The position numbers and the translations under genes are program-made. A stretch of DNA of 64,000 nt from a bacterium (GTDB lineage: Bacteria; UBA8248): positions 2,080,001-2,144,000 of the forward strand of contig CBDBBI010000010.1 of the NCBI GenBank assembly GCA_965202625.1, in the 5' to 3' direction. Positions 3,471 to 64,000 of this stretch are shown here, one piece after another. How positions within the stretch are numbered: the first letter of the stretch is position 1; each line of letters opens with the position of its first letter. The notes under the pieces are model-generated. The model was not told the origin of the DNA. It made no database searches and worked only from the letters and a program-made list of their open reading frames with translations.

Positions 3471-4634
3471 TTACAGGAATTTCGCCAAAACCTGGTTCGC
3501 CAGAAGTGTTCCCCTCTCTGACAGGCGAAGGCGGCCGTTTTCCTTCGCCACCAGGCCGGAACTCTCTAGGTCTGCGAGCAGTTCCTGAAAGACGTCTTCG
3601 GGGTCTGCGCCGCACTCTTGCGCGATTCGTCGCGTTGAAACACCCTTTTTCATCCGAAGTCCGAGCATGAGCGCCTCGCCCATCGCTTTTCGGGGCGTGT
3701 CCACGCGTTCGATTCCAAGGGTCGGATCGCCCGCTTTTCGGGCGTAAACGTCGGGTCTGGCGTGATTCCAAAAACGCCTCCCCTCCATCAGCGAATGCGC
3801 TCCCGCGCCAAGACCCAGGTAGTCTCCTCGCCGCCAGTAATTCAGATTGTGTCTGCACGCGAAACCCGGTTTTGCGAAATTGCTGATTTCGTAGCGTTCG
3901 AAGCCGGCGCCGGCCAGCATCGAATCCCGAAGTTCCCACATGCGCAGGGATGCTTCCTCGTCGGGAAGGCTACACAACTCTCCCCGCGCTTCTCGCGCGT
4001 GAAACGCTGTGCCCGGTTCTATGGTCAGCTCGTAGGCGGAGAGATGGTCGGGCCCGAGGCGGATAGCGCACTCAATGTCCTGGGCGGCCATGTCTATCGT
4101 CTGTTCCGGAATTCCGAACATGAGGTCGAGCGAGAGGTTGGAGAAGCCCGCCGCGCGCGCGGAATGGAATGCTTTTTGGGCGTCGTCCGCGCTGTGAACC
4201 CTGTCGATCTTTCTCAGCCCGCCATCCTCAAACGTCTGGACGCCAATGCTGATCCGGTTGACGCCGGCCTCCCGAAGCGCGCCAAAGCGTTCAGCCTCGG
4301 CCGCTCCGGGGTTCGCTTCAAGCGTGATTTCGCAATCCGGAGACACGTCGAACAATTCGGAGAGGAGGCGCAAAACGCGCCTTGTTTCCTCAGGCGGAAA
4401 CAGCGAGGGCGTGCCTCCACCAAAAAATATCGTCTTCACCTCTCCCCCTTGAAGGGAGAACTGCCTGACGCGGCCTTTCGTTTCCTTCATCAGCGCATCC
4501 GCGTAACGGCGCGCCCAGTCCGCGTCGGCGCGACCCTTTTCCATAAGGGAATCCAGGGCGTATGAGTTGAAGTCGCAATACCCGCATTTGGCGATGCAAA
4601 AAGGAACGTGTACGTAAAGCGACAGTGGTTTCAT
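3471..4634 (-). CDS. hemW: Radical SAM heme chaperone HemW (HemN-like)
   Basis: LYVHVPFCIAKCGYCDFNS (CxxxCxxC), FFGGGTPS, YEISNFA, HNLNYW. Confidence 0.9.
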   Translation of the reverse strand: MKPLSLYVHVPFCIAKCGYCDFNSYALDSLMEKGRADADWARRYADALMKETKGRVRQFSLQGGEVKTIFFGGGTPSLFPPEETRRVLRLLSELFDVSPDCEITLEANPGAAEAERFGALREAGVNRISIGVQTFEDGGLRKIDRVHSADDAQKAFHSARAAGFSNLSLDLMFGIPEQTIDMAAQDIECAIRLGPDHLSAYELTIEPGTAFHAREARGELCSLPDEEASLRMWELRDSMLAGAGFERYEISNFAKPGFACRHNLNYWRRGDYLGLGAGAHSLMEGRRFWNHARPDVYARKAGDPTLGIERVDTPRKAMGEALMLGLRMKKGVSTRRIAQECGADPEDVFQELLADLESSGLVAKENGRLRLSERGTLLANQVLAKFL

Positions 4635-4723
4635 GTCATCGTCCGTTCGTTGATGAGGCGAGGAACGCGAAAGCCTTTTTTCTATGATAGCCTGTGTCGT
4701 GATCCTTTTGCATTTCGGGAGGG

Positions 4724-6304
4724 GTGGTTTTGGTCGTTCACACGGTATCTACCGAAGAGAGATTGCGCGTCATTCAGCGGGTGGGACACGTGCTGAATTC
4801 GAGCCTGGACATGGAAGTCGTCCTGGGCCGCGTGGCGCGTGAGACGAGGGCGATATTCCCGCTGGATCATTTCGTTCTTTATTTGGTCAATCCGGATAAA
4901 AAAACCTATACCATCAGGGTGCTCGCCTCAAGCGATGAAATACTCAACGCGCCACGGGAGGACATACCGCTCAAGGGCGGCGCTCTGGGCTGGCTCATCG
5001 CGCATCGGGAAAGGCCTTATGTCATTTACAAGGACCTGGACAGTGAACGCCCTTTCGCTGAGGACGAGGCAGTTTTCAAGCGCGGAATGCGAAGCGGCAT
5101 TCGCACCCCGCTCGTCATCGGCGATGACGTTTTTGGGGAAATCGCCGTCGCCAGCAGCATGCCCAGCCAGTTTACCGAAGAGATGGGAGAGTTTCTCTGC
5201 GAGCTCACGCCGGCCATCGCCACGGCCGTGTCGAACGCGCAGGCATACGCCCAACTGGAGGCCGTGCGGGATGATTTTCATCAAGAGACGCTCCATCTTC
5301 GGGATCAGATCAAGGAGATCCACAATCCGGATGATCTCACTGGCTCAAGCCGGGCTGTGGCCGATATTCGGGAGTTGGTCGCACAGGTGGCGCCCACAGA
5401 AGCCACGGTGCTCATCTTGGGCGAGACAGGAACCGGAAAGGAGCTGGTCGCGCGTAGCATACACCACCTGAGTGCGCGGCGCAACCGCGTGCTGGTGAAG
5501 GTGAACTGCGCGGCGTTGCAGGATACGTTGCTGCTGAGCGAGTTGTTCGGCCATGAGAAGGGCGCGTTCACCGGAGCGGTGAGCAGAAAAAAAGGCAGGT
5601 TCGAGATTGCGGATAAGGGCACGATTTTTCTCGATGAAATCGGGGAGATATCCCCCGAGGCGCAGGTGAAAATTCTTCGGGTCATGCAGGAGAAAGAGTT
5701 TGAGAGAGTCGGCGGCAACCAGACGCTGAAGGTGGATACGAGGATCATCGCCGCCACGAACAGAGACCTAGAGAAAGAGGTGCGCCAGGGTCGATTTCGC
5801 GACGATCTTTACTTTCGCCTCAACGTAATACCCATTCACGTGCCACCGCTCAGGCAACGCAAGGAGGATATTTCGGAACTGGTGGATTATTTCGTGAGCA
5901 AGCATGGTCCCCGCATGAATCGGCAGATCAAATCCGTGGACCCAAAAGCCTTGGAGCGGCTCATGCGGTATGATTGGCCAGGAAACGTCCGGGAGCTGGA
6001 GAACGTGGTGGAGCGCGGGCTTGTCCTGGGGCGCGGGCAGGTTCTCAGGTTTGACGGGCAGCTTCTGGGCGAATCTCCCCCCTCGTCAAGGGAGAGTGAA
6101 TTTGCGCCCATGGAAGAATACCAAAGACGCTACATCCTGCGGGTGTTGGCGCATACGGACGGCCTGGTTTCCGGAGCGCGCGGAGCGGCCCGCATATTGA
6201 GTATGAAGCCCACGACGCTCAGGAGCCGGATGAAGAAGCTGGGCATCCAATCCCGCCGCGAGCACAAAAGGTCTCATCAAGACGCGCGCCGGGTCGGTGG
6301 ATAA
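4724..6304 (+). CDS. Sigma54-dependent enhancer-binding protein, GAF-AAA+-HTH (FhlA/NifA-like)
   Basis: N-terminal GAF-like domain, GETGTGKE Walker A, SELFGHEKGAFTGA, FLDEIGE, WPGNVRELEN, and an FhlA-type HTH (GAARILSMKPTTLRSRMKKLGI). Confidence 0.93.
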   Translation: MVLVVHTVSTEERLRVIQRVGHVLNSSLDMEVVLGRVARETRAIFPLDHFVLYLVNPDKKTYTIRVLASSDEILNAPREDIPLKGGALGWLIAHRERPYVIYKDLDSERPFAEDEAVFKRGMRSGIRTPLVIGDDVFGEIAVASSMPSQFTEEMGEFLCELTPAIATAVSNAQAYAQLEAVRDDFHQETLHLRDQIKEIHNPDDLTGSSRAVADIRELVAQVAPTEATVLILGETGTGKELVARSIHHLSARRNRVLVKVNCAALQDTLLLSELFGHEKGAFTGAVSRKKGRFEIADKGTIFLDEIGEISPEAQVKILRVMQEKEFERVGGNQTLKVDTRIIAATNRDLEKEVRQGRFRDDLYFRLNVIPIHVPPLRQRKEDISELVDYFVSKHGPRMNRQIKSVDPKALERLMRYDWPGNVRELENVVERGLVLGRGQVLRFDGQLLGESPPSSRESEFAPMEEYQRRYILRVLAHTDGLVSGARGAARILSMKPTTLRSRMKKLGIQSRREHKRSHQDARRVGG

Positions 6305-56319: not shown

Positions 56320-57219
56320 CTAAAATTTAGTCACGGGTAGGTAGGCTTCGCCAGTTTGCGAGGCGTTCCGCCTGATACGTTCGATAACGTCCTGAAAGCC
56401 GGATATTCCCCTCAATACGTGGTATAAATGGTTGTGATCCAGCAGAAGAAGAGGTGTTTTTTTGCCGGATGCCTCTTGCTTCGCGACCGGACTATATCCA
56501 CATATAGAAACGAACACGCCCATCGTATTGTCAGCCTTGGTTTCAACTTTCGAACGAAAGATATCGATATCGGGTGCTCCCGTCTGATTTGTCGTGAACT
56601 TGCACTCAACAAGGTAGGTTGTATCACCGATAGTAATTGATCCGTCGATTTCACGTCCACCCGTTTTATATGGTCGTCGAGAGGTAATCTCGCTAAAATC
56701 CATCAACTTATAAAACCATTTCTCGAAGCCTTTGCCTGCGGAGGGCGATCCTTTCTCGCTCACGAGATCGCAGAGTTTGTTCTCAAGTGATTGAAGGGTT
56801 TGCTGAGACGCTCGGGTCTGAGCTTGAGACTTGTGGAATTTTCTGCGTGCCTCCTGTTTTTGTTTTTCTGACGTAATCTGTGTGTTCTGTTTTGACAGAT
56901 AACGCCGGAGCGTATCGACTGCACTTTTTGCGGTGGCGATCTTATTTTCGCTATCCTCCCAGTTTTCGAGGTCTGGAAAGGCTGTTTGCTCTGAAAGGGA
57001 TCGAGCGAGTTCGATAATCTTCCTTCTTTGTTCGGTTTTCTGGAGCAATTCGAAAACACGCGACAGATAATCTCTCTTTGTTTCATTGGGAAGCCATTCA
57101 GGCAGATCTTGTATCTGTAATGCTCCCAAAAATAATGAAAGTTTATTTCTGCGCCAGAAGGATTTAAGTGCCGCGTCAAAGGTAAGATCGACGAGATGGG
57201 GGGTAAGTTGTGTCTTCAA
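56320..57219 (-). CDS. Restriction endonuclease with C-terminal Mrr-like PD-(D/E)xK domain
   Basis: GKGFEKW...EIDG...YLVECKF...DIDIFRSKV...GVFVSICGYS; N-terminal helical/coiled-coil region; visibly AT-richer than the host genes. Confidence 0.82.
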   Translation of the reverse strand: MKTQLTPHLVDLTFDAALKSFWRRNKLSLFLGALQIQDLPEWLPNETKRDYLSRVFELLQKTEQRRKIIELARSLSEQTAFPDLENWEDSENKIATAKSAVDTLRRYLSKQNTQITSEKQKQEARRKFHKSQAQTRASQQTLQSLENKLCDLVSEKGSPSAGKGFEKWFYKLMDFSEITSRRPYKTGGREIDGSITIGDTTYLVECKFTTNQTGAPDIDIFRSKVETKADNTMGVFVSICGYSPVAKQEASGKKTPLLLLDHNHLYHVLRGISGFQDVIERIRRNASQTGEAYLPVTKF

Positions 57220-57580: not shown

Positions 57581-60500
57581 ATGTCCGGAGATGATCGGCG
57601 CGCGACGCTCGAGACCGTCTTCGACGGCGCACTCCTCACGCGCGATTTCCTCGAGGCCGGCATCACCGGAATGGAGGAGTGGGAAGCGTTTGACGACTCC
57701 GCCCTGGACGCCCTCGAAAGCGCGCTTTGCGAGGTTTTCGGGCGTTTTCCGACGGACGGCACGCCCAACGAGAGCCAGACGGAGGACGACCTCATCTGGC
57801 CCGTCCTTGAGCGCCTCGGGTGGAGCGCGCACCTGCGCCAGCAGAATCTCTCGCCACGCGGCAGACGCGAGGTGCCCGACGGCCTCCTGTTCGAGGATGC
57901 GGCGGCGAAGGCCCGCGCCAATGGCCTTTCCTCCGAATGGCGGCGCTATGCGTTCGGCCTCGCCATGGTGGAGTGCAAACGCTGGGGGCTTCCGCTCGAC
58001 CGCCGCTCCGACAGCGAGGAAACAGCGCCCGCACCCTCCACCCAGATGTCGCTCGGCTTCTCCGCGCGCGCGAGGAGAGCCAACAGACGCCCGACCCAGG
58101 CGCCCGCACCCTCCACCCAGATGCTCCACTATCTGCGGCGCGCGGACGACCTGACGGACGGCAGCCTCCGTTGGGGCGTCCTCACCAACGGGGCGCGCTG
58201 GCGGCTCTACTACTCCGGTGCGCGTTCGGTTTCCGAGCAGTTCTTCGAGGCCGACCTCGCGCGCATCCTGCATCCGCCCGGGCGCGAGGAGGACGCATCC
58301 GCTCTCGACGAAGACGCGCGCCGCCACTGCCTCAAAGCGTTCGCGCTCATGTTTCGGTGCGAAGCCTTTCTGCCGACCGCAGAGGGTGGGCGCGCGTTTC
58401 ACCAGCGCGCGATGGAGGAGGGGCGGCGCTACGAGGAGCGCGTCGCCGACGATCTTTCCGCTCTGGTGTTCCAGAAAATTTTCCCCGATCTCGCCGCTGC
58501 CATCGCCGCCGCCGCCCCCGACGCCCCGCTGGAGGAGGCGCGCGAGGCCGCCCTGGTCGTCCTGTATCGTCTTTTGTTCATCTTCTACGCGGAGGACAGA
58601 AACCTCCTCCCCGTTCGGGACGATCGCTACGACGCCCTGAGCCTGCGCCAGAGGGTGCGCGACGACGTCGGGCACCGCATGAGCCGGAACGACCGATCCT
58701 TCTCGACGCGCGCGACCGCCTACTGGTCGGCGTTTGGCGATCTTTGTCGGCTGATTGATGCGGGCGACGCCTCCATCGGCCTGCCGCCTTATAACGGCGG
58801 GCTTTTTGATCCGGCGCGCACGCCGGTTCTCGACCGGGTACGTCTCGACGATAGCCTGATGGCGGGCATGGTGGACGCCCTCTCGTTCGAGAAAACGCAA
58901 GCCGGCCGCCGCTACATCAACTACCGGGATCTCGGCGTCCAGCAGCTGGGCTCGATTTACGAGCGCCTGCTCGAGTATGAGGTCGTCCGCCTCGGAAGCG
59001 AAGTCGATGTCCGCCTCAACGCCTTCGCGCGCAGGGGCTCAGGCAGCTACTACACGCCGGACGATCTGGTCGGCCTCATCATCGAGGAGACGGTCGGCCC
59101 GCTCGTTCGCGCGCGGATGGACGCTTTCGGGGAGGCGGCGGCAAAACGCGCGGGAAAGCGGAAAGTTACAGAAGAGGAGCGCGCGGGGCTGGAGAGGTGC
59201 GATCCGGCGGAGCGCATTCTGGAGATGAGAGTCTGCGACCCGGCGATGGGCTCGGGGCATTTCCTCGTCAACCTCGTGGACTACCTCGCCGACAGGGTCA
59301 TCGAGGCCATGGCCGGAGCGGAGGCCGCCGCGGAGGGCTACGTCTCGCCGCTGGCCGGACGAATCGAGGAAATCCGCGAGACCATCAAGGCGAACGCGGC
59401 GAAAGGCGTCTGGCGGCTGGAGGAGGCGCAGCTGGACGATCGCCGCATCGTCCGCCGCATGGTGCTCAAGGGCTGCGTTCACGGAGTGGACAAGAACTCC
59501 ATGGCGGTGGAACTCGCCAAGGTGGCGCTCTGGCTCCACACCTTCACGGTGGGCGCACCGCTCAGTTTTCTGGATCACCACCTGCGCTGCGGAGACAGCC
59601 TTTTCGGCGCATGGGTGCGGGAGGGGAGCGAGAGGGCGGAGGCGCGCGGCGGCGCGCTCTTTTTGCGCGAACCCATCCAGCGGGCGATGCGGGCGGCGGC
59701 GCCGATGCGGGAAGTCGAGCGGCTCACCGACGCGGAGATGGCCGAGGCGCGCGAATCCGCCGCGCGCTTCTCCGAGGTGGAGGAGGGAACGGCGCCGCTC
59801 TCCGACCTGCTTTCCTTAGTCCACGCCCTCGACTGGCTACGCCCGAAGGAGGAGGAAGACAAAGCCGCGCTTCAAGGCTTCTTCTCCGGCGCGTTCGGCG
59901 ATCCGCTCGATATCGTCCAGGGCACAGCGCCGAGGGACGGGCGGGGGTCGAGGCGCCTCGCCGCCATTCTTGAGCGCGCGCGGATGCTGATGGAGGAGGA
60001 GCGCTTTTTCCACTGGCAGGTGGCGTTTCCCGGCGTGTGGTCGGAGTGGGAGCGCGCGGAACGCCAAGGTGGTTTCGACGCCGTTATCGGCAATCCGCCC
60101 TGGGACAGGGTGAAGCTCCAGCAGGTGGAGTGGTTCGCCGCCCGTCGGCCGGATATCGCCATGGCCCCGCGTGCCGCCGACCGCAAGCGGATGATCGCCG
60201 CGCTGGTGGAGGAGGAAGACCCGCTCGCCGGCGCGTTCGCCAGGGCGAGTGCGCGCGCGGCGGATGCGGCCCGCATGGTGCGAACCTCCGGCGACTACCC
60301 CCTGCTCTCGGGCGGAGACGTGAACCTCTACTCCCTGTTCGTCGAGCGTGCCATGTCTCTGGTGAAGCCGGAAGGTGCAGTCGGCCTGCTCGCACCCTCC
60401 GGCATCGCCTCGGACAAGACGGCGGCGCGGTTCTTTCGGGGCGTGGCGACGGAAGGGCGTCTGCGCGCCCTCTATGACTTCGAGAACAAAAAGGTGTTCT

Positions 60501-61735
60501 TTCCCGCCGTTCACGCATCGTTCAAGTTCTGCGTTTTCGTCGCCGGCGCCTCACCGACTGAAAGGCCGGCCAGGTGCGCGTTCTATGTGCACGACGTATC
60601 GGAACTGAAAGACCCCGAGCGATGCTTCCCCCTCATGCCGGAGAATTTCGCCCGCGTGAACCCGAACACGGGCACCGCCCCCATCTTTCGCACGCGGCGG
60701 GACGCCCGGCTGACCACCGCCATCTACGACCGCCTGCCCGTTCTGGTGAATCGCTCCTCAAACGCGGCGGTGAAGACGTGGCCGGTGAAGTATTCGACCA
60801 TGTTTCACATGACCAACGACTCTGCTCTGTTTCGCACGCGCCGGGAGCTCGAGGAAAACGAGGGTGCCTGGCCGGTTGGCGGCAATCGCTACCGCAGCAG
60901 GGCGGGAGAGTGGGTTCGGCTCTATGAGGGCAAGATGGTACAGGCGTTCGACCACCGCGCGGCCCGCGTCGTCGTGAACCCCGGAAATACGCACCGTCCC
61001 GCTCAGCCCGTACCCGCCACCCTGGCACAGCATGAGGATCCGGACTGGCTGCCCGATCCGCAGTATTGGGTGTTGAAGAGCGAAATATCATTTCCAAGGG
61101 CATCATATTTGCTAACGTTCAAGGACGTGACCGCACCTACCAACGTCCGATCCATGATTGCGACGTTGATCCCAAACGGAGGTGCCGGGAATACGCTTCC
61201 TGTCGTGTTAATGGATGAAAGACAAACCGCCGGAGAAACTGCGAGCTTGCTTGCTAATTTCAATGCGATACCGTTTGACTATGTTGCGCGCCAGAAAATT
61301 CAGGGCCAGCATCTCAACTGGTATATCGTCGAACAGCTCCCCGTCGTTCCGCCCGAAACGTTTGAGACTACCCTCTTTGGCCCTAAAACTGCCGGAGAGA
61401 TTGTGCGGGAAGCCGTCCTGGAGCTCACCTACACCGCCCACGACATGGCACCCTTCGCCCGGGATATGGGCTACGTGGATGATGCGGGCGAGGTGCGCGC
61501 ACCCTTCGTCTGGAACGAGGAGCGTCGTCTGCGGCTTCGGGCGAAGCTGGACGCCGTGTTCTTTCATCTCTACGGCGTTGCGGATCGGGACGAGGCGGCC
61601 TACGTCTATTCCACCTTCCCCATCGTCGAGGCCCAGGAGAAGAAGGCTTGCGGCTGCTACCGCTCGCGCGACCTGTGCCTCGCCTGGATGAACGCCCTCG
61701 CCGCCGGCGCACCGGATGCGGACGTGTGCCTGTGA
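57581..61735 (+). CDS. Type IIG restriction-modification enzyme (Eco57I-like fused nuclease, N6-adenine methyltransferase and TRD)
   Basis: VPDGLLF...VECKRW nuclease, WGVLTNG, YNGGLF, LGSIYERLL, GSYYTP, DPAMGSGHFL (motif I), FDAVIGNPPW (motif IV). Confidence 0.92.
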   Translation: MSGDDRRATLETVFDGALLTRDFLEAGITGMEEWEAFDDSALDALESALCEVFGRFPTDGTPNESQTEDDLIWPVLERLGWSAHLRQQNLSPRGRREVPDGLLFEDAAAKARANGLSSEWRRYAFGLAMVECKRWGLPLDRRSDSEETAPAPSTQMSLGFSARARRANRRPTQAPAPSTQMLHYLRRADDLTDGSLRWGVLTNGARWRLYYSGARSVSEQFFEADLARILHPPGREEDASALDEDARRHCLKAFALMFRCEAFLPTAEGGRAFHQRAMEEGRRYEERVADDLSALVFQKIFPDLAAAIAAAAPDAPLEEAREAALVVLYRLLFIFYAEDRNLLPVRDDRYDALSLRQRVRDDVGHRMSRNDRSFSTRATAYWSAFGDLCRLIDAGDASIGLPPYNGGLFDPARTPVLDRVRLDDSLMAGMVDALSFEKTQAGRRYINYRDLGVQQLGSIYERLLEYEVVRLGSEVDVRLNAFARRGSGSYYTPDDLVGLIIEETVGPLVRARMDAFGEAAAKRAGKRKVTEEERAGLERCDPAERILEMRVCDPAMGSGHFLVNLVDYLADRVIEAMAGAEAAAEGYVSPLAGRIEEIRETIKANAAKGVWRLEEAQLDDRRIVRRMVLKGCVHGVDKNSMAVELAKVALWLHTFTVGAPLSFLDHHLRCGDSLFGAWVREGSERAEARGGALFLREPIQRAMRAAAPMREVERLTDAEMAEARESAARFSEVEEGTAPLSDLLSLVHALDWLRPKEEEDKAALQGFFSGAFGDPLDIVQGTAPRDGRGSRRLAAILERARMLMEEERFFHWQVAFPGVWSEWERAERQGGFDAVIGNPPWDRVKLQQVEWFAARRPDIAMAPRAADRKRMIAALVEEEDPLAGAFARASARAADAARMVRTSGDYPLLSGGDVNLYSLFVERAMSLVKPEGAVGLLAPSGIASDKTAARFFRGVATEGRLRALYDFENKKVFFPAVHASFKFCVFVAGASPTERPARCAFYVHDVSELKDPERCFPLMPENFARVNPNTGTAPIFRTRRDARLTTAIYDRLPVLVNRSSNAAVKTWPVKYSTMFHMTNDSALFRTRRELEENEGAWPVGGNRYRSRAGEWVRLYEGKMVQAFDHRAARVVVNPGNTHRPAQPVPATLAQHEDPDWLPDPQYWVLKSEISFPRASYLLTFKDVTAPTNVRSMIATLIPNGGAGNTLPVVLMDERQTAGETASLLANFNAIPFDYVARQKIQGQHLNWYIVEQLPVVPPETFETTLFGPKTAGEIVREAVLELTYTAHDMAPFARDMGYVDDAGEVRAPFVWNEERRLRLRAKLDAVFFHLYGVADRDEAAYVYSTFPIVEAQEKKACGCYRSRDLCLAWMNALAAGAPDADVCL
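58025..58123 (+). repeat. 24-bp direct repeat flanking an in-frame insertion (75-bp period)
   Basis: GCGCCCGCACCCTCCACCCAGATG at 58025-58048 and 58100-58123; encodes APAPSTQM twice. Confidence 0.85.
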
Positions 61736-61823
61736 TAAAATGTAGCGGGCTGTGCGTGTTGCCAGGGCATGATCAACAAATCACTTTTTGGATAAGGTGA
61801 ACGGGAATTTTGGGATATCACAT

Positions 61824-62051
61824 ATGGTCAAGGTAGCGAGAGTTTCTGGGCGTGAGGCGGCCCGAGTGTTTGAAAAAGCGGGATGGGTTTTTGGCAGACG
61901 GAAGGGTAGCCATATGATCTACGTAAAAGACGGAGCGGAAAGACACCTTTCGATCCCTGATCATAAAACCCTGAAGATCGGACTGCTCATCAAGTTGATA
62001 AAAGCCGCGGGGCTGACGCCGCAAGAGTTTGAAGAATTGGGGCGAAAATAG
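61824..62051 (+). CDS. hicA: HicA family toxin (mRNA interferase)
   Basis: SGREAARVFEKAGW...RRKGSHMIY...LSIPDHKTLKIGLLIKLIKAAGLT. Confidence 0.92.
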   Translation: MVKVARVSGREAARVFEKAGWVFGRRKGSHMIYVKDGAERHLSIPDHKTLKIGLLIKLIKAAGLTPQEFEELGRK

Positions 62052-62188: not shown

Positions 62189-62280
62189 ATATCAGGTTGG
62201 TGCTGGGCCGACCTCAAGCGAACGCGAGAGAGACGATGGGGTGTAATGAAGCACACACCCTAAAGGAAGAGAGAGCCGCG

Positions 62281-62580
62281 ATGAAGCAATATATTCATGT
62301 TCTCAATAAAAGCAGTTATGGCTCGTTCCGGATCGCCCTGGAGCCAGACGAGGTGGACGGCGGATACGTCGCCGAGTGCTTGGACCTCGAAGGCTGCTTT
62401 TCAGAGGGCGATACCCAGGAAAGCGCGCTTGCCAACATTGGCGAGGCGATAGAGGGCGTATGCGAATCCATGATGGAACACCACGGGCGCGTCATGCACT
62501 CCACCGAGAGTTCTGACACGCATTCGGAATCCTCGGAAGAGATATACACCAGCACGCCTCGCACTCTCAAATACGCATAG
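62281..62580 (+). CDS. hicB: HicB family antitoxin (short, no obvious DNA-binding domain)
   Basis: LEPDEVDGGYVAECLDLEGCFSEGDTQESALANIGEAIEG; Ser/Glu-rich tail. Confidence 0.9.
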   Translation: MKQYIHVLNKSSYGSFRIALEPDEVDGGYVAECLDLEGCFSEGDTQESALANIGEAIEGVCESMMEHHGRVMHSTESSDTHSESSEEIYTSTPRTLKYA

Positions 62581-62595
62581 CCCTCACCGCTGCCG

Positions 62596-62632
62596 CCCCT
62601 GACGCAGACGTGCGTCTGTGAGGGGGTTTTGT
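62596..62632 (+). terminator. Putative intrinsic terminator after hicB
   Basis: CCCCT-GA-CGCAGAC-GTGC-GTCTGTG-AGGGG followed by GTTTTGT. Confidence 0.5.
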
Positions 62633-62725
62633 GCTACTCCTGCCTTATAATTGCCGTCGGCGGATAAGTCGCATATCATGCACGCGAAATAGAATGGAGG
62701 CGGAAAGCGCGGGAGGAGAGGCGTC

Positions 62726-63199
62726 GTGACCGAACGGCTCTTGTCGGACGACGAACGCAAGGCGTATCGTTCGCTCCCGAAGCGCGTCACCAACCCCGGG
62801 GCGCGCTGGAGCGGCAAGCCCGGCCATCGGCAACGGCGTTACGAAGCTGTTTCCGAAGATGAAGCGCGCGCGCAATTTCTGATATATCTCCGGCAAAATC
62901 TCCACGACGAGATAGATTTCTCCTGCGGTCTCGCGCTGATTCAGAATAGCGGGCAACTTTTCAGTCTCGCGCGCTACAACGGCGCGAATCATCTCCATGG
63001 CGCCATCGCGCATCGTTGCCACATCCATCGCGCCACGGCGGAGGCACTCTCCGCCGGAAAAAAACTCGATAGCCATGCGGAGGAAACGGACAGATACCGG
63101 ACTTTGGATGGCGCGCTTGCCTGCCTGATCGAAGATTGCGCCGTTCAGGGTCTGGCCGCTAAACCCGATCATCCGGAGTTGTTTGATGACGTTGGATAA
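62726..63199 (+). CDS. Uncharacterised His-rich protein (DUF6978-like)
   Basis: RBS GGAGGAG; DFSCGL...LARYNGANHLH...CHIHRAT motifs; overlaps the next gene. Confidence 0.75.
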   Translation: MTERLLSDDERKAYRSLPKRVTNPGARWSGKPGHRQRRYEAVSEDEARAQFLIYLRQNLHDEIDFSCGLALIQNSGQLFSLARYNGANHLHGAIAHRCHIHRATAEALSAGKKLDSHAEETDRYRTLDGALACLIEDCAVQGLAAKPDHPELFDDVG

Positions 63200-63968
63200 A
63201 ACGGGACTGGAAAAAACCCTGTGCGAGAGGTTATGCAGAAGCGTCCGGATACATCAGCGGGCAGACGTGGTTCTCATGCTGGACACGCCGTTCACCTTTC
63301 CAGACGGCGATCACTATCCGATCTATCTCTCCGAGGGCCGCGCCGGCGGCGTGATCTTAAGCGATCGCGGACATACGCTCATGCACGCGAGCTACGAGCA
63401 CGACGTCGATGCTTTCTACGACGGTTCGCGCGCGGTGCTGCGCGAGCAGATTGTCCGTGAGGCGGGGATTGAGGAGAACGAGGGCGTTTTTACCATTGAG
63501 GCGGTACCGGATGGCGTTGCGGACGCTCTTTTCACCTTCGGCCAGGCGTTGACGAAGATCTACGACCTCACCTTTTTGAGCCGCGCGCGGGTCGCTTCTA
63601 CTTTTTACGAAGACCTGAAAGCCTTGCTTTTCAGGATGATAGACGCGCAAAAGATAGAGAGGGACTACATACCGGCGGACGTTCCGAACGGGGCGGACTA
63701 TCCTGTAGATTACCGAATCGCGGGCAAGCACGACGTTCCGATATTCCTCTACGGCGTTCCGGGCCGGGACAAGGCGCGGCTGACGACCATCATGCTGTCC
63801 CACTTTCTGCTGAACCGCCTCTCTTTCGAGTCCGTGATCGTGTTCGCCGATCAACAGCAGATCCCCCGGCTCGACCTCGCCCGGCTGACCAACGTCGCGG
63901 GGACGGCGGTCGCATCCCTGGACGCGGAGGACGACCTGCGCCGCAAAGTCCTTCAACGGGCCGCTTGA
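63186..63968 (+). CDS. DUF1828-like protein with a C-terminal DUF1829-like domain
   Basis: LDTPFTFPDGDHYPIYL...ILSDRGHTLM, STFYEDL, YPVDYRI. Confidence 0.78.
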   Translation: MTLDKTGLEKTLCERLCRSVRIHQRADVVLMLDTPFTFPDGDHYPIYLSEGRAGGVILSDRGHTLMHASYEHDVDAFYDGSRAVLREQIVREAGIEENEGVFTIEAVPDGVADALFTFGQALTKIYDLTFLSRARVASTFYEDLKALLFRMIDAQKIERDYIPADVPNGADYPVDYRIAGKHDVPIFLYGVPGRDKARLTTIMLSHFLLNRLSFESVIVFADQQQIPRLDLARLTNVAGTAVASLDAEDDLRRKVLQRAA

Positions 63969-64000
63969 TCCTCCCGTTGACGCCGCTCCCCGCCCGTGAA

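Follow-up and report, generated by a model that had tools for sequence, protein, structure and literature searches.

A divergent PDC-M24 gene pair and its possible role as a mobile defence module

The rexA and rexB genes of phage lambda form an exclusion system that the prophage expresses from its immunity region, beside cI, and RexB is a membrane protein. The anticodon nuclease PrrC is embedded in the EcoprrI type I restriction-modification (R-M) operon according to a passage of the preprint of Payne et al. (bioRxiv 10.1101/2024.01.29.577857). The same preprint describes the PDC systems as 145 'guilt-by-embedding' phage defence candidates, selected for their location inside BREX, DISARM or type I R-M systems. 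Here we describe a pair of genes related to one of them, PDC-M24. The pair lies at positions 62726..63968 of a stretch of 64,000 nucleotides (hereafter the window; contig CBDBBI010000010.1 of assembly GCA_965202625.1, positions 2,080,001 to 2,144,000 of the forward strand) from a bacterium of the GTDB lineage UBA8248.

Judged from profile comparisons, the two genes, called gene 1 and gene 2 from 5' to 3', are a divergent member of the DUF6978 + DUF1828 family, which corresponds to the PADLOC candidate PDC-M24 and is thus already catalogued. The original prediction for this locus, made from the DNA letters alone, had called the pair undescribed. This claim has to be withdrawn, since gene 2 is a match to PDC-M24B and gene 1 a homologue of DUF6978/PDC-M24A proteins. 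That prediction also knew of no established function for the pair, and our literature searches on DUF1828, DUF6978 and PDC-M24 likewise returned no functional study. No paper on PDC-M24 was found, and the name does not occur in the accessible portions of the main text of Payne et al. Our contribution consists of the DUF6978 assignment, the linkage of the two genes in 106 of 106 loci, the settings of the pair between restriction endonuclease (res) and methyltransferase (mod) genes and next to cI, a predicted interface and an assessment of the nuclease-like domain of gene 2.

Sequence families and linkage of the two genes

The genes and the signals read around them are listed below.

62595..62627, + strand: possible terminator 3' of hicB that would separate hicAB from the pair, a GC-rich hairpin followed by a short U run
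62651..62679, + strand: promoter-like site 5' of gene 1, TTGCCG, 17-nt spacer and TATCAT (9 of 12 positions match; a consensus match only)
62712..62716, + strand: ribosome-binding site of gene 1, GGAGG, 9 nt 5' of the GTG, read from the sequence
62726..63199, + strand: gene 1, GTG start, 157 residues, divergent DUF6978/PDC-M24A-like protein with an invariant RYNG..HxH..(C)HIH histidine cluster
63175..63178, + strand: ribosome-binding site of gene 2, GGAG, 7 nt 5' of the ATG and within gene 1, read from the sequence
63186..63968, + strand: gene 2, ATG start, 260 residues, DUF1828 plus a restriction-endonuclease-like domain

The open reading frames (ORFs) agree with the original prediction of two genes that overlap by 14 bp (63186-63199) and have a ribosome-binding site each. 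An alternative TTG start of gene 2 at 63183 would yield 261 residues. The terminator that the prediction placed behind hicB is less clear. A hairpin with a U run is present at 62595-62627 and has a fold energy of -23.8 kcal/mol, yet with a z-score of just -1.56, and the site was not among the calls of the terminator scan. Both genes are strongly constrained across many phyla, with a mean column identity of 63% for gene 1 (25-sequence alignment) and of 72% for gene 2 (30 sequences). Therefore, neither ORF is a product of chance.

Gene 1 itself remains below the gathering threshold of Pfam DUF6978 (PF22398, 29.6 bits), as it matches no Pfam family at E≤1. No PADLOC family was found at E≤1 either, and there was no direct match in NCBIfam. 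The protein does match phrog_27326 (E 2e-40), a family without assigned function. The DUF6978 lead came from an Atlas search and was then tested with profiles. At E≤1e-3, homology searches yielded 386 gene 1 homologues among 422 candidates, and the gene 1 profile retrieved 1133 cluster representatives among 1.84 billion. Pfam DUF6978 is matched at E≤0.01 by 25 of 49 sampled relatives from the profile search, 10 of which reach the gathering threshold, and PDC-M24A by 15 of 32 sampled relatives of gene 1 (best E 5.9e-8). An hhalign comparison of the gene 1 relatives with 15 DUF6978-type proteins taken from that profile search gave a full-length match (probability 100%, E 5.5e-58).

The motifs K..P..W, Y.RQ, DFS.G, RYNG..H.H and CHIH are common to gene 1 and DUF6978 and align over the full length. 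Residues R83, N85, G86, H89, H91, G92, H99 and H101 are invariant in the 25-sequence alignment, so that the RYNGxxHxH and CHIH motifs noted in the original prediction are present with invariant histidines. Relative to typical DUF6978 proteins, the subfamily of the window lacks about six residues between RYNG..HxH and CHIH, and it has a Gly at the position of the family's invariant Asn. Based on these comparisons, gene 1 is best described as a divergent DUF6978/PDC-M24A relative that current models miss.

The predicted model of gene 1 has a predicted local distance difference test (pLDDT) score of 87.9. A Foldseek search with it against the PDB returned nothing at E≤1e-3, and in BFVD it matched one uncharacterized siphovirus protein (E 4.6e-4). 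Sequence and profile searches of the PDB with both proteins gave nothing below E 0.2. We discarded several readings of the histidine motif, namely a HUH endonuclease, a HIT triad, a cupin HxH...E site and a HNH/beta-beta-alpha-Me site. No such fold appeared in either structure search and gene 1 has no conserved Tyr or helix Asn/His; for the cupin reading, the window subfamily lacks the 'NxxEG' stretch, which is similar to cupin motif 1. A tblastn search of a plasmid collection with gene 1 gave no match. When we looked for extended or fused versions of the gene 1 protein, we saw no fusion of the two genes, which is weak evidence, and one 320-residue protein with an SBP_bac_3 domain that is probably a gene-calling join. 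A distant relative of 342 residues (P0192) combines an N-terminal AAA_14/PDC-S01-like ATPase part with a DUF6978 part, which could reflect either a genuine fusion or an artefactual join in gene calling.

Gene 2 has 834 homologues at E≤1e-3 among 3833 candidates. Its N-terminal part had been predicted to be of the DUF1828 type, and indeed Pfam DUF1828 (PF08861) matches residues 34-125 over the whole profile (positions 1-91 of 91, E 4.8e-17), at 62.5 bits for a gathering threshold of 22 bits. Two PDC-M24B models of PADLOC, PDLC04540 (E 3.5e-13) and PDLC04539 (E 4.4e-13), match as well, with alignments limited to residues 18-149 and to profile positions 17-146 of 255. The protein also matches phrog_5059 over its full length (E 7e-33). 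In the predicted model (pLDDT 83.9), DUF1828 spans residues ~13-134 and a C-terminal domain of PD-(D/E)xK type residues ~135-260. Fold matches of the model point to the alpha-beta-beta-beta-alpha-beta core of PD-(D/E)xK nucleases in the latter, in line with the restriction-endonuclease-like C-terminus proposed originally. D143, D175, D195 and K196 are invariant in the window subfamily (30 sequences). D175, in a P-V-D motif of the second strand, is also invariant throughout the wider family, and D143 nearly so. The third strand has no acidic residue and no Lys. The nuclease site thus appears non-canonical at best.

Homologues of the pair were collected by a genome scan with one genome per species, which gave 207 confirmed loci. 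We kept 80 of them, on which all context counts are based. A gene 2 homologue directly follows the gene 1 homologue in all 80 loci. The same was true for each of the 26 loci found in IMG/VR with the DUF6978 alignment, bringing the total to 106 of 106. The genes are always co-oriented and usually overlap. In addition, the identities of gene 1 and gene 2 to the window copies correlate (Spearman 0.70, 75 loci). Partial copies of the pair are found in four of the 80 loci (L005, L065, L080 and L060), the last being broken by a contig end. In L005 (6458-6847) and L065 (6459-6869), gene 2 ends after ~130-137 residues, leaving DUF1828 alone next to an intact gene 1, and the gene 2 sequence of L080 is distributed over three frames.

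Relatives share 49-66% identity with the window copy for gene 1 and 52-78% for gene 2. Going by record titles, they come from at least 10 phyla, and the taxa include Acidobacteriota, Alpha-, Gamma- and Zetaproteobacteria, Binatia, Nitrospirales, Chloroflexota, Actinomycetota, Rhodothermales, Gemmatimonadota, Thermodesulfobacteriota and Entotheonella. Only one of 22 other genomes of the genus to which the window belongs has a close gene 2 homologue, with 57% identity, whereas homologues in other phyla reach 78%. This patchy distribution within the genus, together with the high identity across phyla, indicates a horizontally mobile accessory module. No third gene is conserved across the 80 genome loci, where clustering of 585 neighbouring ORFs gave 492 clusters, and the pair has no linked integrase or recombinase.

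Predicted complex of the two proteins

Structure modelling predicts a heterodimer of the two proteins in which DUF6978 contacts DUF1828. The score of the complex is 0.78 (median of three runs), as compared with 0.00 for the best of three controls. Of 157 solved complexes, 116 reach this value, as do two of 215 mismatched pairs; these counts apply only roughly here, since our alignments were unpaired. At least 71% of contacts are common to the runs, and the partner pLDDT is 77 or higher. Sequence and profile searches of the PDB with both proteins found no similar solved complex.

The predicted interface comprises residues 31-36, 54-70, 83-92, 101 and 112-118 of gene 1 and, on the DUF1828 side, residues 23-47 (including P39-D40-G41-D42), 61-78 and 99-101 of gene 2. 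The 28 invariant residues of gene 1 are concentrated there, with 15 at the 32 interface positions and 13 at the 125 positions elsewhere (Fisher p 1.3e-5). For the N-terminal domain of gene 2, invariant residues occupy nine of 27 interface positions and 16 of 107 others (p 0.03). In the model, the invariant acidic PDGD loop of DUF1828 is opposite the invariant histidines of gene 1. The original prediction had suggested that these histidines form a metal-dependent catalytic site; in the modelled complex they fall in the DUF1828 interface. The histidine face could serve for binding, belong to a metal site shared by both chains, or be an active site that the partner covers.

Genomic settings of the pair

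Neighbours of the pair were identified by scanning cluster representatives of at least 130 residues at the two nearest positions per side (122 of 168 clusters), in addition to earlier scans. The largest neighbour clusters are a restriction endonuclease of the BPTD_3080 family of ~1040 residues (NF046055, E 0 for two representatives) and a type III methyltransferase of ~940 residues (PDLC03632, E 0). In 10 of the 80 loci (L026, L030, L035, L039, L040, L044, L053, L063, L075 and L078), the endonuclease gene is upstream and the methyltransferase gene downstream of the pair on the same strand; there, the pair is nested inside a type III-like R-M operon. L080 is an eleventh R-M locus, with the reverse gene order. 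The third cluster, of DrmMI/type IIG-like proteins, is found within the three nearest upstream ORFs in nine related loci, as in the window. In L007, the scanned representative of that cluster, an additional fragment is present downstream of the pair.

An MNT-like nucleotidyltransferase gene (NTP_transf_2, ~100-117 residues) adjoins the pair in L026, L037, L053, L074 and L077. It occurs together with type III-like R-M genes in L026, L053 and L074, and in the first two it sits in the gap between res and mod. This gap, it is suggested, collects several small cassettes.

Other defence-related neighbours include HmaA, an MmeI-type IIG enzyme, HsdM, PDC-S01, PDC-S26, PDC-S37/Hhe, HEC-01A, IetA, NsnB-like genes, a type II restriction endonuclease and a cytosine methylase. 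Toxin-antitoxin (TA) parts (PIN, MNT-like, HicB-like and Rv0623-like), transposase, resolvase, MobA, terminase and plain housekeeping genes were also found. A neighbour that matches a PADLOC model is present in 40 of the 80 loci among the ORFs scanned, a descriptive figure with no matched control. Defence-type settings, of which the original prediction had seen one, thus recur next to R-M and DrmMI/IIG-like genes and in prophages.

In viral genomes, a repressor gene with helix-turn-helix and Peptidase_S24 domains precedes the pair on the same strand, at a distance of 0.05-1.5 kb, in 21 of the 26 IMG/VR loci. For this count, 19 repressors were scanned directly, and the other two loci, L104 and L105, have the same upstream ORF as L102. 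Homologues of both genes are found together in four Pseudomonas temperate phages. In the annotation of Pseudomonas phage 5399, the order is cro, cI, a gene for 84 residues and the pair, whose gene 2 product is 39% identical to that of the window (E 6e-66). By analogy with rexAB of lambda, which occupies this slot, the position next to cI implies that the pair would be expressed in the lysogen. A Latilactobacillus phage gene located 5' of a DUF1828 gene gave a weak match to the DUF6978 profile (probability 56%) and was not counted as a pair.

The surroundings of the pair in the window and beyond its end are as follows.

56320-57219, - strand: Mrr_cat gene (library scan)
57581..61735, + strand: gene for a DrmMI/type IIG-like methyltransferase-nuclease of 1384 residues (PADLOC DrmMI E 1.9e-86, REase_MTase_IIG E 7.6e-56)
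61788-62051, + strand: hicA, context outside the pair (Pfam HicA_toxin, E 2.2e-15)
62278-62580, + strand: hicB, context outside the pair (Pfam HicB_lk_antitox, E 2.4e-8)
63909..64000 (continuing to about 64005), + strand: copy 1 of a direct repeat of ~96 bp that combines the final ~60 bp of gene 2 with adjoining downstream sequence
L084 3056-4704, past the window end and directly 3' of gene 2: gene for an AbiLi-like ATPase and DUF3226/PDC-M38B gene
L084 4778-4873 (G000:C10, about 2145777-2145872), 3' of the DUF3226 gene: copy 2 of the ~96-bp direct repeat

The AbiLi-like ATPase matches PADLOC AbiLi (E 3.7e-48) and PDC-M38A (E 1.4e-46). Its cassette is followed by a gene for a ricin-type lectin domain protein and then by housekeeping genes. 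With Mrr, DrmMI-like, HicAB and AbiLi/DUF3226 neighbours, the defence island in which the original prediction placed the pair is real, though small.

The AbiLi/DUF3226 (PDC-M38-like) cassette thus has sequence of the gene 2 3' end on either side, and the repeat pair may be the scar of a cassette insertion or replacement. The 1384-residue DrmMI/type IIG-like ORF contains the octapeptide APAPSTQM twice, ~30 residues apart, near residues 170-200, which may be a small internal duplication. A second copy of the whole region, 97-98% identical, is present on contig C2 (22.6 kb) of the same genome (G000), where the pair occupies positions 3548-4789 (L085). In that copy, gene 2 is intact and gene 1 has a -1 frameshift in an A-run near codon 112. 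Either a strain variant in the assembly or a homopolymer error may be the cause. We did not use this frameshift as evidence on toxicity, given its position in an A-run and the possible assembly error.

Possible functions and related systems

We see about even chances that the pair is a mobile, self-contained and heteromeric module of defence or superinfection exclusion that acts on nucleic acid. According to this reading, the histidine-rich face of DUF6978 (K31, G33, Q36, Y54, R56, D64, S66, G68, R83, N85, H89, H91, G92 and H101) would dock on DUF1828 of gene 2 (R25, P39-D40-G41-D42, G62, M66, S69 and Y70, as predicted by the model). The restriction-endonuclease-like C-terminal domain of gene 2 would bind or cut nucleic acid, and the DUF6978/DUF1828 unit would control that domain or sense infection. 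Phage would trigger the complex, and phage replication would be blocked as a result. An effector plus a sensor or antitoxin in phage defence had also been put forward in the original prediction, and these roles are putative. In a bolder version that we hold to be unlikely, a metal centre across the interface would be built from H89, H91 and H101 of DUF6978, with H99 nearby, and from D60 and the PDGD loop of DUF1828. This would make the pair a two-chain enzyme whose fold has no solved relative and the effector in a widespread system of defence or exclusion, expressed from prophage immunity regions and carried within R-M operons; the nuclease-like domain would only hold DNA.

A number of points weigh against a defence module of this kind. 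PDC-M24 is among the 145 candidates that their authors term untested (bioRxiv 10.1101/2024.01.29.577857). In 40 of the 80 loci there is no recognized defence neighbour among the ORFs scanned, and some flanks are housekeeping genes; moreover, cluster membership was assigned by BLASTP and representatives alone were scanned. The score of the predicted complex is the model's own confidence, derived from unpaired alignments. The DUF6978-type proteins in the hhalign comparison were drawn from the gene 1 profile search, and the comparison is thus not independent of it. Lastly, D195-K196, at the start of the helix that follows the third strand, is variable in the wider gene 2 family, and because of this the C-terminal domain may be catalytically dead.

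Several of the same observations are also expected from a TA-type addiction module that stabilizes mobile islands or prophages, one product being toxic and the other neutralizing it by direct binding. The toxic part would be the histidine site of gene 1 or the nuclease-like domain of gene 2, the PDGD loop would cover the histidine face, and any effect on phages would be secondary. The overlap of the genes, the tightly packed complex predicted by the model, with conserved motifs of both partners buried in the interface, and the mobile and patchy distribution are consistent with this explanation, as are the TA neighbours, HicAB in the window and those named above elsewhere. The DUF1828 half retained beside an intact gene 1 in L005 and L065 would fit DUF1828 as the neutralizing part. 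Nevertheless, both proteins are unusually conserved and apparently well folded (pLDDT 88 and 84), unlike typical labile antitoxins, and Pfam and NCBIfam scans detected no antitoxin-type DNA-binding domain. Decay affects both sides, with gene 2 broken in L005, L065 and L080 and gene 1 frameshifted, perhaps by a homopolymer error, in the C2 copy. Nesting in R-M operons and the position after cI are also settings that have yielded defence systems, according to the same preprint. We therefore regard an addiction module as rather unlikely.

The R-M setting itself raises the question of a non-autonomous accessory or regulator of the flanking R-M system, acting in restriction control during establishment, in alleviation, or as an extra specificity or recruitment subunit. 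The 10 loci with the order res, pair, mod on one strand argue for such a role, as does the position beside DrmMI/IIG-like genes in nine loci and the window. However, the partners belong to at least four unrelated systems (type III-like, DrmMI/IIG-like, Hma and type I HsdM), and the pair is also found in prophage immunity regions without R-M genes among the ORFs scanned and between housekeeping genes. In addition, unrelated small cassettes such as the MNT-like genes occupy the same res-mod gap. We consider an R-M accessory quite improbable. A function of mobile elements or prophages other than defence (for instance in the control of lysogeny, in repair or recombination of DNA, or as a small-molecule enzyme that depends on metal) would agree with the position next to cI, which also suits lysogeny-related genes, and with the nuclease-like fold predicted for gene 2. 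Gene 1 may have a metal site, and DUF6978 is called a putative metal-binding family in one preprint passage. Still, most copies are chromosomal and outside recognizable prophages, and many are inside R-M operons. The absence of a conserved third gene and of a linked integrase or recombinase in the 80 loci, whose largest neighbour clusters are R-M genes, also argues against a non-defence function, which we deem very unlikely.

If the defence module we favour does protect against phages, the PDC-M24 candidate would become a system with a working model, in which an obligate DUF6978-DUF1828 heterodimer is combined with a restriction-endonuclease-like domain. This would give a role to two domains of unknown function, with more than 1000 cluster representatives. 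The three recurrent settings, i.e. the BPTD_3080-type res-mod gap, the DrmMI/IIG-like flank and the rex-like slot after cI, make the pair a well-motivated target, and the Pseudomonas temperate phages that carry it are a natural test system.

Among described systems, PDC-M24 is the closest. It has the same organization, a ~155-residue A gene followed by a ~260-residue B gene on one strand, and is likewise embedded in R-M or defence operons, unlike the window system in that gene 1 matches no PDC-M24A or DUF6978 model even at E≤1 and that gene 2 aligns to the PDC-M24B models over its N-terminal half only. Because gene 1 is not recognized, PADLOC as it stands would miss the window system, and its current models miss a large and very conserved subfamily that occurs, by record titles, in at least 10 phyla. 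Membership in PDC-M24 says nothing on mechanism. Systems such as Can2, Card1, Cdn1 and VC1899, in which a sensor domain is joined to a PD-(D/E)xK nuclease domain, are also listed among the closest.

The likeness to PrrC and EcoprrI lies in a cassette of non-R-M genes nested co-oriented between R-M genes. By analogy, the two might share the logic of a back-up defence that fires upon inhibition of the R-M system. The proteins are unrelated, PrrC being an ABC-ATPase fused to a nuclease, and EcoprrI is a type I host system, in contrast with the type III-like or type IIG-like systems around the pair. With rexAB of lambda, the pair has in common that it is a co-oriented two-gene module immediately 3' of a cI-type repressor, as in the 21 viral loci and in phage 5399. 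The two modules have no sequence or fold relation, and the models of the pair look compact and soluble, whereas RexB is membrane-bound.

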